64,000 nt of DNA from Halocafeteria seosinensis (Eukaryota), in assembly GCA_001687465.1 (NCBI GenBank), contig LVLI01000117.1, positions 1 to 64,000 on the forward strand. Reading direction: 5' to 3'. The translations under genes were made by a program, and so were the position numbers. Shown here piece by piece: positions 55,248 through 59,249 of this stretch; the stretch's first letter is position 1; each line of letters begins with the position of its first letter. The notes beneath the pieces were generated by a model. The model was not told the origin of the DNA. It ran no database searches and worked only from the letters and a program-made list of their open reading frames with translations.

Positions 55248-56095
55248 TTACTCGTCTTCGATCACTACGGTGCCGTTGTCAATCTCTTTGCAAACCTTGT
55301 GCGGATGTTTCTTATCAACCGTGCATCCGATAGAATGGCATGTTCCCAAGATTTCCTTTACTGTTCCGTAGAAGAAGCGAGCCATGGAGCGCTGCCTCAT
55401 TGTTCGGGCAATTTGCTTCACTTGTTCTAAAGTTAAGTTGCCGTCGTGCTTGACTGCAGGAATAAACATTAAAAAGTTCCTTACCCATCATAGTACGCGT
55501 AATCGAATATAATGACCACGTACTGTTCTTAGGTCCTTTCTTTCTATCACGAGGAGGTTCTTTCAACTCGCGGATAACCAATGACGAAGCACTGGGAACG
55601 ACCTCGACCTGTGTTGGCAAAAAAGACGAGTTGCTCCCAAAACCCCATCAACAGTGGCCTCAAGAACTTACAGTAGCCTGGCGGTTGACGACAGTAAGCT
55701 TGACAGTCACACGGAGTCCCTTCCAGTCCATTGTATTCTTCTGAATATCTTCACCTATCTTCTTGGGAGATAACCCAAGAGGACCGACCTTGGGGGCTAA
55801 GGTAGAGGCAGCTCCAACCTCACCACCTACTGTCCTCAAGTAGACTGCAAATACACACATAACACCATATAGTAACTGATCATGTCCCTATTGTCGACAT
55901 TTTCCCGGGAGAGGTGTCATCATACAGCACAGTAGACGGATTCCACCACTTCCCCTTGAGAGCAGACACCACCTCTGCTCCCCCGTCCCCTGTTCCTCGG
56001 CTACTGGCTGTACCCCATCCTTTTTGTAGTTCTTCGGCAGTGGAGCTTGAACACTTACTGATTTTGGCCTCCGAAGCATCAAATTTAGGCGGCAT
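55248..56095 (-). CDS. RPL12: 60S ribosomal protein L12 (uL11), 4 exons
   Basis: [61 protein letters not shown]; introns 55845-56058 (214 nt), 55609-55671 and 55454-55523. Confidence 0.98.
55905..56000 (-). promoter_or_regulatory. Putative structured intronic cis-element mimicking the LSU rRNA uL11-binding site (H42-H44)
   Basis: AGGGGACGG...GGAAGU..GGAAUCCG...UGUAUGA...CACCUCU matches rRNA GCAGGACGG...GGAAGUCGGAAUCCG...UGUAACA...CACCUGC (rRNA recalled from memory) with compensatory stem changes. Confidence 0.65.
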
Positions 56096-56564
56096 TTTGC
56101 TTTATATTTCTGTACCACACCAAAGAAGATACACGTGAAAATGATATGGAACGTCGAGATTTCGTCCAAATAGCGTGTATGAAGCGAAAAATGGGATACG
56201 GCCCATAAGCCTCCTCGGAGGGTTGCCAGCGTTCCAAAGCACTTACCAGAAGGATAATGAGCTATAATAGCTACTGTCCTTACAGAATACGGAGGATAAA
56301 CGTCTCTCCTTCTTTGGGTAAACACGGATTTCCTTATGGACACCGCGAACAATATCCTATCGTCCCTTGTATGTGATCGAGTCACTCAGCCAGGGAGCGA
56401 GGCGACAAACAAATGTTTCACTCACGAGAAGTGGATTTTTTGTGAAGTTCATGCGACATCGAGTCGATTGGGTCCAACAAAGCCTTAGAACGCCGTATTC
56501 TAGATCGAATTTTGCATTTTTTGGAAGCTGACACGCTGTGGAATAAGGCGTCGCATAGTGTATA

Positions 56565-59249
56565 ATGACGCAGAAATGTTACTGTCGCTTGGTCCTTATG
56601 GTCACGGGCGATGGGTACAGTGATCAGAGCCCACCCGGGTTTTTATTGAGTATACAGACAGCACAGGTTCCCAGACCCATGGATAGCCAGAAGGATGATT
56701 CGAGTTCTTCAGATGACTCCGACTCGTCCGATTCCGCTGGTGTGTCCCTCCCTGACTATGCGAAAGACAAGGCGAAGATTCCACTGCACAAGTGGACTGT
56801 GAAACATACAGTGCTATTTGGGTGTGGAGAGGGCTCTAGGCGATGTTTGAATGAGCAGCACGTCAAATTAAGGACTTTGCGGGCTATTTGCTTGACGAAT
56901 GACCATCTCAACTCGATTTCAGGGATCCCGAGTACGCTCTTCCACATGGGCGATACAGGATGTAAGGAAGTTACCGTATGTGGCCCGGGCGATATTCAGA
57001 ATACTATGAATGGGGTCAACGAGACATTCGGTCGGAAGTATCCGATAACAACAGTAGAAAAACCGGGCAGAGGGGAATGGAGAGGAATTCTATCGATGCC
57101 TTTATATGATGCTACGGAGAAAACAAAGGGTTGCCCCAATCAGCATGTCCGGTTGACTACTGTCGATCCGACTTCTCAGCCACTTGATACGCGCGAGCGA
57201 AGTACCAGTGACTCGAGTAGTCAATCAAGTGAAACATCTTCTGATACATCTTCATCGTCTTCTTGTTCATCCGATATAAATATTCCAGACCAGCAGAAAA
57301 GGAGGTCCGGTGACTTAGCAGGCGGTGATAGCAACACCACTGAAAGGGAGAAAGAGTTTATGAACTCGCTTAGATATAAAATTCGAAATGCAAAACGAAG
57401 CGCCGATGAACTGGTCTACAGCAAATCGATAGAAGACTGTTGCAAAGCTGCTCGGTCAAGCGAAGAAGCTAGCCACCCCATGCCCTATAGTGGACTGGAA
57501 GGCCCATCCACCCCTGCGCCTTCGTCGGTGTATTGTGTCCAACTGGTCTTAGATCCTTCAGAACGGAAGAGTGTCCCGCTTGCTTTAGTCATAGATATTG
57601 ACACTTTTCCTCAACTGAGCTCCTATGAACGTTTATTTGCACAAGTAAAGCACACATGTGTATCAAGGATTCACATTGTTCTGTTTTCGAGTGTGCGCAG
57701 TCACAAACAGAAATTTGACAAACATGCTTGTCAAATAGAGGAAGTTTTCAATGGTCTGACCGTGAACATTACGCGTATAGGACAAGCTACTGGGGCAAAA
57801 GCGGACAACCGTTATTTATTCACTTTCTGGAAAGCGGCAAACCTGCAAGCACAACTCTCTCTATTCGACAATGCGGTGTATCCCTTTCCGATGCTCGATA
57901 GGTTGTCGGTTGATCACGTAGAAAATTGTGAGCAAGGGCAATTTCTTCGAACTTTAGACACCGTCGAACTGTGGCCTTCGTTTTGTCACTTTAATCAGTC
58001 TACGGAACATGTTGCTCCGCAGAGCCACTTCGAAAACCTAGGTTGGAAAGATTTGGTATCGTCAAACGTTCAGGAACATACCCAAGTAAATGGAGAACTT
58101 AAGAAGCAAAAGATCGCAGAGACTATGGCTCAGACCAAGGCAGCAATTTCAAACGAGTCACTGGGGTCTGGGAAGACTTCCAATGAGGTGTTTACCTCTG
58201 CAGTTGCTACAATGTACATTCTAGGAACCGGCGCATCGACTCCTGGAAAGTATCGATCCAATACAGGTATCTACCTGTCACTAGATCCTCTAAAACTAGC
58301 ACATGTGCTAAAGTGCGGGTACAAAGCAGACGTTGCTCCGCAAGGCATTCTACTAGACTGCGGAGAAGGAGTGTTAGCAGGCTTTTCCCGGCTCTTCGAA
58401 AGTAAGAAAAAGGAAGTGGCTACAGATAACCCAATGGACTTAGTACTCAAAGGAATACAAATCATATGGATATCGCATCATCACACCGACCACCATTCCG
58501 GGCTGCTGTCATTATTGGGGAGGCGTCAAGAGGTTCTTCAACAGGGGGAGCCGCCAAATTTGTTACTAGTTTGCCCTCCGAAAGTACGAAAATCCATAGA
58601 GTACTATCGACAAGGAATAAGTTCTAGACTGAATCCGTTCTATTCGGTAACCATGGTAGACACTCAGGATTTCAATAACCCGCTGAATTCTCAACGTCAG
58701 GGTTTCTTTTCAGCAAGTCGTTGTAATGGAACCAAACTCTCTTGCGAGTCAACAGTTACCTCTTTTTTAAGTGTTCCTGTCGAACATTGCCCAGATGCAT
58801 ACGGTGTTGTGCTGATTTTGAACCGAAGGGATGGAGACACGATGGGAACGAAGATAGTTTTCTCTGGGGATACCAGGCCCTGTAAAAGGCTAATCGCGGC
58901 AGGCTCTGGAGCTTCGCTTCTGATCCATGAAGCTACGTTTGACGACTCGATGGGTTCTCATGCTGTAAGGAAGAGACATTGTACTATTAGCGAGGCCTTG
59001 GATGTTGGCGAGAAGATGCGTTCTCCGGCAATTGTGTTAACGCATTTTAGTCAGAGATACTCGAAAATAGGTCCGGAGTTGCCATCGGATTCTAACAGCA
59101 GGTCTTCCAGAAAGGCAGTCTTTTGTAATGCCTACGATGGAATGCAGTTAAACCTAAATAAAGACGGTAGCGCTATTCTAGACAGCTGTTCTCGTGCTAA
59201 TGCTGCAGAAAAGTTACTGCGCAGAGTTGACGAAGAACTTGCTGCATGA
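56565..59249 (+). CDS. Long-form ribonuclease Z (ELAC2/Trz1-like), intronless
   Basis: N-terminal pseudo-domain FGCGEG..R; C-terminal LGTGASTP..YRS, LLDCGEG, ISHHHTDHH, VEHC, SGDTRP, HEATF, HCT, LTHFSQRY, AYDG. Confidence 0.92.
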   Translation: MTQKCYCRLVLMVTGDGYSDQSPPGFLLSIQTAQVPRPMDSQKDDSSSSDDSDSSDSAGVSLPDYAKDKAKIPLHKWTVKHTVLFGCGEGSRRCLNEQHVKLRTLRAICLTNDHLNSISGIPSTLFHMGDTGCKEVTVCGPGDIQNTMNGVNETFGRKYPITTVEKPGRGEWRGILSMPLYDATEKTKGCPNQHVRLTTVDPTSQPLDTRERSTSDSSSQSSETSSDTSSSSSCSSDINIPDQQKRRSGDLAGGDSNTTEREKEFMNSLRYKIRNAKRSADELVYSKSIEDCCKAARSSEEASHPMPYSGLEGPSTPAPSSVYCVQLVLDPSERKSVPLALVIDIDTFPQLSSYERLFAQVKHTCVSRIHIVLFSSVRSHKQKFDKHACQIEEVFNGLTVNITRIGQATGAKADNRYLFTFWKAANLQAQLSLFDNAVYPFPMLDRLSVDHVENCEQGQFLRTLDTVELWPSFCHFNQSTEHVAPQSHFENLGWKDLVSSNVQEHTQVNGELKKQKIAETMAQTKAAISNESLGSGKTSNEVFTSAVATMYILGTGASTPGKYRSNTGIYLSLDPLKLAHVLKCGYKADVAPQGILLDCGEGVLAGFSRLFESKKKEVATDNPMDLVLKGIQIIWISHHHTDHHSGLLSLLGRRQEVLQQGEPPNLLLVCPPKVRKSIEYYRQGISSRLNPFYSVTMVDTQDFNNPLNSQRQGFFSASRCNGTKLSCESTVTSFLSVPVEHCPDAYGVVLILNRRDGDTMGTKIVFSGDTRPCKRLIAAGSGASLLIHEATFDDSMGSHAVRKRHCTISEALDVGEKMRSPAIVLTHFSQRYSKIGPELPSDSNSRSSRKAVFCNAYDGMQLNLNKDGSAILDSCSRANAAEKLLRRVDEELAA

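Follow-up and report, generated by a model that had tools for sequence, protein, structure and literature searches.

The RPL12 gene of Halocafeteria seosinensis raises the question of whether the RNA of a ribosomal protein gene imitates the rRNA site bound by its own product, uL11. The gene lies on the minus strand of contig LVLI01000117.1, of which we analysed the first 64,000 nucleotides (hereafter, the window). A sequence-only reading of this stretch had placed in one of its introns a mimic of helices 42 to 44 (H42-H44) of the large subunit (LSU) rRNA, the GTPase-associated centre (GAC), through which free uL11 would bind its own pre-mRNA. The general idea of imitation survives in a reduced form, as a small element resembling lower H43 in the leaders of other RPL12 genes, but not as a whole H42-H44 domain in the intron. 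We propose, with a confidence just short of even, that diatom and several animal-like RPL12 leaders repeat lower H43, where they are likely bound by uL11 for self-repression, and that the gene studied here likely has its copy in the leader, as a hairpin at 56345-56325, and not in the intron.

The gene was identified as RPL12/uL11 by its Pfam domains (L11_N and L11), and translation of the coding exons (56095-56059, 55844-55672, 55608-55524 and 55453-55248, minus strand), bounded by splice joints, gives an intact product of 166 aa. Runs X2, X3 and X4 are cDNA-like, with contigs that bridge introns of 70, 63, 214 and 137 nt, and these joints across the RPL12 introns indicate that the G-rich first coding intron (55845-56058, minus strand; 214 nt) is real; the other two coding introns measure 63 and 70 nt. 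The length and splicing previously given for this intron are thus correct, but not its rank: a 137-nt intron in the 5' UTR (56110-56246, minus strand), overlooked at the time and evident from the joint 56109/56247 in X2 and X3, is also spliced, and the 214-nt intron is therefore the second of the transcript. The non-coding first exon (56247-56369, minus strand), with its far end under a single contig of lower depth, is covered by X2 contigs at 56247-56303 and 56274-56369 and by X3 at 56247-56325, with no contig of X2, X3 or X4 at 56370-56504. High-depth cover of the leader ends at 56303, that of X3 at 56325 and that of one X2 contig at 56369, where the latter has a loose end of 255 nt or more that is absent from the window. 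No contig of the three runs lies inside the 214-nt intron or represents a retained or alternative form of it, an absence that is uninformative because contigs drop rare forms.

Run X1 contains two haplotypes and small indels (56066-56175, 56392-56435, 55469 and 55514), with variants in the UTR, promoter and other introns but none in the coding exons or the 214-nt intron. Within the latter no variant occurs in 214 nt, versus six in the 270 nt that the remaining three introns make up (Fisher p 0.037, less secure because the variants are linked), which is a weak hint of constraint. In a quick tree, the protein groups with named diatoms and Triparma in a clade of 44 rows (support 91), which makes a stramenopile host likely; the genes of its closest relatives, P0005 (98%) and P0007 (96%), have introns at the same positions. 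Searches found no RPL12 in viral contigs, and the read-through frame of the intron, used as a query, retrieved one match, limited to the N-terminus. A long divergent ORF (56506-59249, plus strand), with a C-terminal part that presumably resembles a metallo-beta-lactamase or RNase Z-type fold, begins about 140-200 nt from the RPL12 leader, in the arrangement of a bidirectional promoter.

Comparison with other RPL12 genes was based on metagenome loci, of which the best 80 of at least 234 confirmed ones were used, none of them closer than 88%. Many of these 80 contain, just 5' of the coding region, a short hairpin with the motif N-S-G-U-(A/C)-G, a variable stem-loop and C-A-U-C-S-N. Among the best 80 of at least 234 loci, a strict descriptor of this motif matched within 300 nt upstream in 19, equal to 19 of 62 non-redundant clusters, when 0.92 were expected from its 15 matches in 354 kb of the same loci; four near-matches read by eye bring the total to 23 copies. 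Its carriers fall into clusters with named diatoms, with a copepod and with oribatid mites, seven of the ten proteins looked up being without a name; the motif occurs in all 14 loci of the diatom/Triparma clade within the best 80, if the by-eye near-matches are counted. Within the same best 80, no strict motif was found in 12 plant/green-algal-like rows, 12 fungal-like rows (labels inferred) or ten non-diatom loci of the clade of the window gene, one of which has little upstream DNA.

The 23 copies vary in a manner expected of paired RNA at two positions (E. coli numbering): the pair 1058-1080 is C-G in 15 and G-C in 8, and 1057-1081 is U-A in 13, U.U in 5, A-U in 3 and G.U in 2, with G1062-C1076 present in every copy. 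This invariance is partly built in, because H43 was in view when the descriptor was derived from these loci. The covariation score of 19 aligned copies, 0.463, exceeds that of all 500 shuffles (0.162) and of every slid control (maximum 0.184), although it is inflated by relatedness and reflects few events, about two of them at 1058-1080. A model built from leaders only (R2; alignment A4, without the misaligned L075 and the long-looped L019, L032 and L070) placed the held-out copies, in a search of 97 kb, at ranks 1 (L070), 2 (L019), 3 (L075) and 10 (L032). We consider it very likely that the leader motif is a real structure. No Rfam 15 family matches the window region or any of 12 RPL12 loci, and position weight matrices derived from rRNA sequences are blind to the motif, with sense equal to antisense over 77 loci.

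In the diatom clade, the copies (L013-L019, L021, L023, L028, L031, L032, L034 and L070) lie directly 5' of the ATG and end about 14 nt before the AUG. Most of them add a pair at 1056-1082 (G-C in nine, A-U in four and G.U in one), followed by UAAA and a GG/CC closing stem. Separately, L024, L026 and L029 share another hairpin, conserved and with changes that appear compensatory, which is located about 50-110 nt upstream of the match, before the AUG.

The letters of the leader motif are those of E. coli H43 at G1059, U1060, G1062, C1076, A1077, U1078 and C1079, along with the flanking pairs, whereas the motif lacks the H44, the A1067 loop and the three-way junction of the LSU GAC (Rfam RF02543; E. 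coli 23S 1051-1108). A descriptor of these letters matches only H43 in the 16S, 23S and 5S rRNAs of E. coli and, in eukaryotic rDNA contigs, again only H43, in one of four (L162); it finds two matches in 128 kb of the window. It misses H43 in three eukaryotic, one bacterial and one archaeal rRNA loci, which diverge at 1062-1078. Likewise, the only match of R2 in the E. coli operon is H43, with a weak score (12.5 bits, E 0.37), and R2 misses H43 in six rRNA loci and in L162. The rRNAs themselves vary at 1062-1076 (G.A, G-C, G.U and A-U), and an equivalent of A1088 is not evident in the motif outside the diatom copies. We predict that the leader motif is probably a uL11 site.

The corresponding element of the window gene was sought with a covariance model of the GAC (R1). 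The source sequences were one contig from a viral collection and at least 55 matches from a genome collection, all eukaryotic and three too short; 28 distinct sequences were kept, and the 25 without N were used for the model, which recovers true GACs from all three domains at 55-103 bits. Contaminating eukaryotic LSU rRNA fragments are present in at least 55 prokaryotic genome records (L095-L149). Near the RPL12 gene, the best internal R1 match (local, E 1.2) is a hairpin at 56345-56325 (minus strand) with arms CGGUGUCCAU and GAAAUCCG. It retains G1059, U1060, A1077, U1078 and C1079, pairs at 1057-1081 and 1058-1080 and has the inner stem, with U-A at 1062-1076, where the family has G1062-C1076. 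When the arms 1057-1066 and 1074-1081 are used as a model, this hairpin ranks first in the window (22.2 versus 16.1 bits), with a family-wise shuffle p of 0.002 and a score above all 154 control segments. It folds as H43, with a z of -2.6 when alone; its stem has a probability of 0.63 in the context of the exon but of 0.14 in that of the spliced mRNA, where the hairpin lies 92 nt before the AUG. Gap-free or loose models of the whole domain score it weakly (5-214 of 1000 shuffles reach it). Its presence in the transcript is suggested by one X2 contig that covers it; the deepest contig ends at 56303 and that of X3 at 56325, and contigs show neither transcript starts nor strand. We infer that it is the best candidate for the uL11 site of this gene; its membership in the leader family is likely at best, because it has U-A at 1062-1076, is not matched by R2 and has common look-alikes under lenient criteria.

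An alternative that we judge unlikely, though far from negligible, is that the leader family is real, but the gene studied here has no functional copy, and both matches on it, in leader and intron, arose by chance. In its favour, R2 matches neither element, a lenient H43-like descriptor with good local folding occurs 92 times in 128 kb, clumps of three such matches within 600 nt exist elsewhere too, and the ten non-diatom loci of the same clade, among the best 80 of at least 234, lack the strict motif. Against chance, with each of two rRNA-arm models the highest-scoring match in the window lies in this single gene, in sense orientation, and its margin over the best of 154 control segments is about 6 bits or greater. 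Lenient criteria also pick out 56280-56251, with A at 1060, and comparable candidates in L020 and L025, all of which we rejected as being at chance level. The first of these coincides with a stable minus-strand hairpin (56280-56251) that stops 4 nt short of the UTR intron's 5' splice site and has an A1077-like bulge.

The second of these matches concerns the 214-nt intron. Both window elements resemble the eukaryotic H43, and in two-arm models the intron arms do no worse than the leader hairpin, but the intron has neither U1060 nor A1088 and is without most pairs of H44. Its arms for lower H43 (1054-1062 and 1074-1081) are identical at 16 of 17 positions: the 5' arm (55980-55988, minus strand) at 8/9, with G in place of the invariant U1060 (55982) as the mismatch, and the 3' arm, GGAAUCCG, at 8/8 to 1074-1081, preceded by a GGAAGU like 1067-1072 (together, 55937-55953, minus strand). 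A 9-bp hairpin (55958-55982, minus strand) has pair probabilities of 0.98-1.0. None of 3000 shuffles equals the intron with the best of six two-arm models, giving a family-wise p of about 0.001, and the arms score 22.5 bits versus at most 16.4 in 154 control segments, with the caveat that these models were chosen post hoc, with the intron sequence already seen. In a set of 80 model variants, the expected count has a median of 0.077 with the intron and of 0.008 with the leader hairpin. The arms are present and able to pair, but they lack the U1060 and G1062-C1076 of the family.

It is improbable, in our estimation, that these arms form a partial uL11 site, with GGACGG paired to CCGUCU under the 9-bp hairpin cap, that would modulate splicing of this intron. 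Apart from the identity of the arms and its family-wise p, this would be consistent with the CGG/CCG stem of lower H43 lying just 1.6 kcal/mol above the ensemble, with the length of the intron and its freedom from variants (again, p 0.037 with linked variants), and with the report that C. elegans RPL-12 affects its own splicing (PMC4937301, as far as its relevant part goes). However, the intron has G at the position of U1060, which is present in all rRNAs seen and in 23/23 leader copies, its stem is interrupted by an 18-nt single strand, a register preserving U1060 costs 8.4 kcal/mol, and a search upstream of 77 other RPL12 matches gave no such element. We regard the intron match as due largely to chance in a G-rich sequence or, at best, as a degenerate second site, in any case not as an H42-H44 domain.

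Ribosomal protein introns are often hosts of snoRNAs, and a long intron such as this one could contain a snoRNA or other small RNA to which any likeness to rRNA is incidental, an explanation that we find very improbable. It could account for a perfect C-box-like heptamer, AUGAUGA, at 55923-55917 (minus strand), for a 10-nt LSU rRNA complement overlapping the end of this heptamer, and for the stable helices of the intron. Nevertheless, a C/D snoRNA is contradicted by the presence of a C box only, with no CUGA D box in the intron, and an H/ACA snoRNA by H and ACA boxes that, by eye, do not flank two hairpins; Rfam has no match on the region, and about one 10-nt complement is expected by chance, other introns giving 10-12 nt. 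A 9-nt LSU complement followed by an imperfect D-like box, at 55900-55880 (minus strand), is likewise at chance level and falls short of the 10-nt threshold used for complements; its LSU target is what we take to be the region around yeast Um2347.

The proposal of a complete H42-H44 domain in the intron, folded and bound by uL11, is hardly credible after our analyses, despite its convincing look. The rRNA consensus on which it was based agrees with that of Rfam, and the blocks GGACGG, GGAAGU, GGAAUCCG and CACCU do occur in the claimed order, with a 3' register that is ungapped. Yet this 28-nt stretch (1079-1106), though alignable, is identical at just 14/28 positions, or 19/35 for 1074-1108, and R1, with its 25 eukaryotic GACs, does not match the intron element: its 19 matches in the window are noise, none of them on the element, and in a 701-nt region the sole match nearby is a 1.8-bit fragment by its 3' end. 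As a whole domain, the intron differs little from its shuffles (p about 0.03-0.9), whether in pairwise alignment (135-420 of 3000 shuffles reach its score), in chains of exact blocks (54-146 of 2000 as high) or in profiles that allow at most two free gaps (102-933 of 1000). The assertion that differences from rRNA keep pairing was true in part, but 1082-1086, 1087-1102 and 1092-1099 cannot pair in the intron, and 1091-1100 is flipped, which would break what we take to be the G1071 triple of the rRNA site. The 3' part proposed for H44 and H42 (55910-55936, minus strand), which includes the C-box-like heptamer, is identical at 11/27 positions, and G replaces A1088 (55930) as well as U1060; in rRNA, the pair U1060-A1088 contacts Gly130-Thr131 of L11, according to the pertinent portion of PMC2175356.

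Folding predictions agree. The outer stem has a pair probability of 0.0, forcing H42 with the base of H43 costs 12.3 kcal/mol, and the predicted folding of the intron does not surpass that of shuffled sequences (z +0.56; 144 of 200 as good). The predicted ensemble consists instead of the 9-bp hairpin and a 13-bp helix (within 55922-56013, minus strand), in which the strand proposed for H44 pairs, as part of 55935-55922, with 56013-56001; 11 of the 13 pairs have probabilities of 0.86-0.95 and the two outermost 0.10 and 0.27. Together, these results indicate that the whole-domain mimic fails in statistics, thermodynamics and binding determinants, and they illustrate how deceptive the sharing of sequence blocks between rRNA and a G-rich intron can be. 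A run at about 56006-55992, which we presume to be similar to the sarcin-ricin loop, has no closing pair and was taken as chance.

Returning to the leader motif as a uL11 site, we envisage that free uL11 would bind the H43-like internal loop of the RPL12 leader and that the bound protein would hinder scanning or initiation, as the position of the diatom copies, about 14 nt before the AUG, suggests; uL11 would thereby repress its own synthesis. Binding of L11 to rRNA requires the tertiary fold, in the part of PMC6239185 that deals with it, so that a lone hairpin might be bound weakly, or only with the help of further contacts that are not apparent here; conversely, a leader motif of 25-40 nt that copies the uL11 face of H43 would test binding of L11 without the full tertiary domain, and offers a concrete, mutable target in tractable hosts. 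There is very little likelihood that the motif is bound instead by uL10/P0 or a P0-uL11 complex, as the UAAA after the stem in diatom copies, like E. coli 1083-1086, might suggest together with the bacterial L10 leader, which mimics the same rRNA region and needs two adenosines: the kink-turn critical for L10 binding (both points from the relevant part of PMC3616713) was not seen by eye, most non-diatom copies lack UAAA, and the conserved letters sit on the 1059-1062/1076-1079 face. Rfam gave no match to an L10(L12)4 leader on 12 of the loci.

A wider reading, which we hold as tentative, is that a minimal copy of H43, old and so far undescribed, is common to RPL12 mRNAs from diatoms to animals and would let free uL11 repress itself, that is, a eukaryote-wide leader for a protein without a known mRNA site, and that in the gene of the window the leader contains an rRNA-like copy and the intron perhaps a degenerate second one; this second copy, taken by itself, is doubtful. 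A motif of this type may also be present in the 5' UTR of human RPL12. A literature search found no mimic of the uL11 site, and the novelty of the motif is provisional, because subscription papers and the structure catalogues in supplements were outside its reach.

Among fungi, a conserved 57-nt structure, proposed to be autoregulatory, is known from the 5' UTR of Pezizomycotina RPL12 (Gao, Jones and Rivas 2021, PMC8216456); it resembles the leader motif in its location at the 5' end of RPL12, and the section concerned with it makes no claim of rRNA mimicry. Six of our fungal-like loci (L035, L047, L057, L060, L068 and L072; alignment A6) contain a covarying two-helix structure that covers the AUG and the first 5' splice site, suggesting control of splicing. 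It has AUC on its 3' side, as in the leader motif, but no GU.G on its 5' side, and it is probably the published structure.

In animals, feedback of uL11 on splicing has been reported (PMC8047918, PMC4937301 and PMC8623629, in the parts relevant here). The level of uL11 feeds back on its own transcript in C. elegans rpl-12 and in mammalian RPL12, as we propose for the leader motif, although it does so through alternative splicing and nonsense-mediated decay, and the relevant parts of PMC4937301 and PMC8047918 name no rRNA-like element and state that the L10ARE is unlike its rRNA site. The self-feedback of uL11 is thus known in worms and mammals, in those parts without a named RNA element, and bacteria use uL1 for the L11 operon.

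Leaders of ribosomal protein genes in prokaryotes and yeast are treated in PMC3616713, PMC10931766, PMC7247131 and PMC7732827, in the parts considered here, and the prokaryotic portions (including PMC7247131) describe no leader bound by uL11. Inspection by eye of two genomes did not reveal a putative haloarchaeal leader with an L11 site. In bacteria the L11 operon is under the control of uL1 (PMC10931766 and PMC3616713, same parts), whereas the RPL12 hosts studied here are eukaryotes. In its design, nevertheless, the leader motif is like the bacterial and archaeal leaders, including the L1 leader of rplK-rplA and those for L10(L12)4, S8, S15 and L20: in all of them, part of an rRNA binding site is copied in the 5' leader of an mRNA, presumably for feedback.
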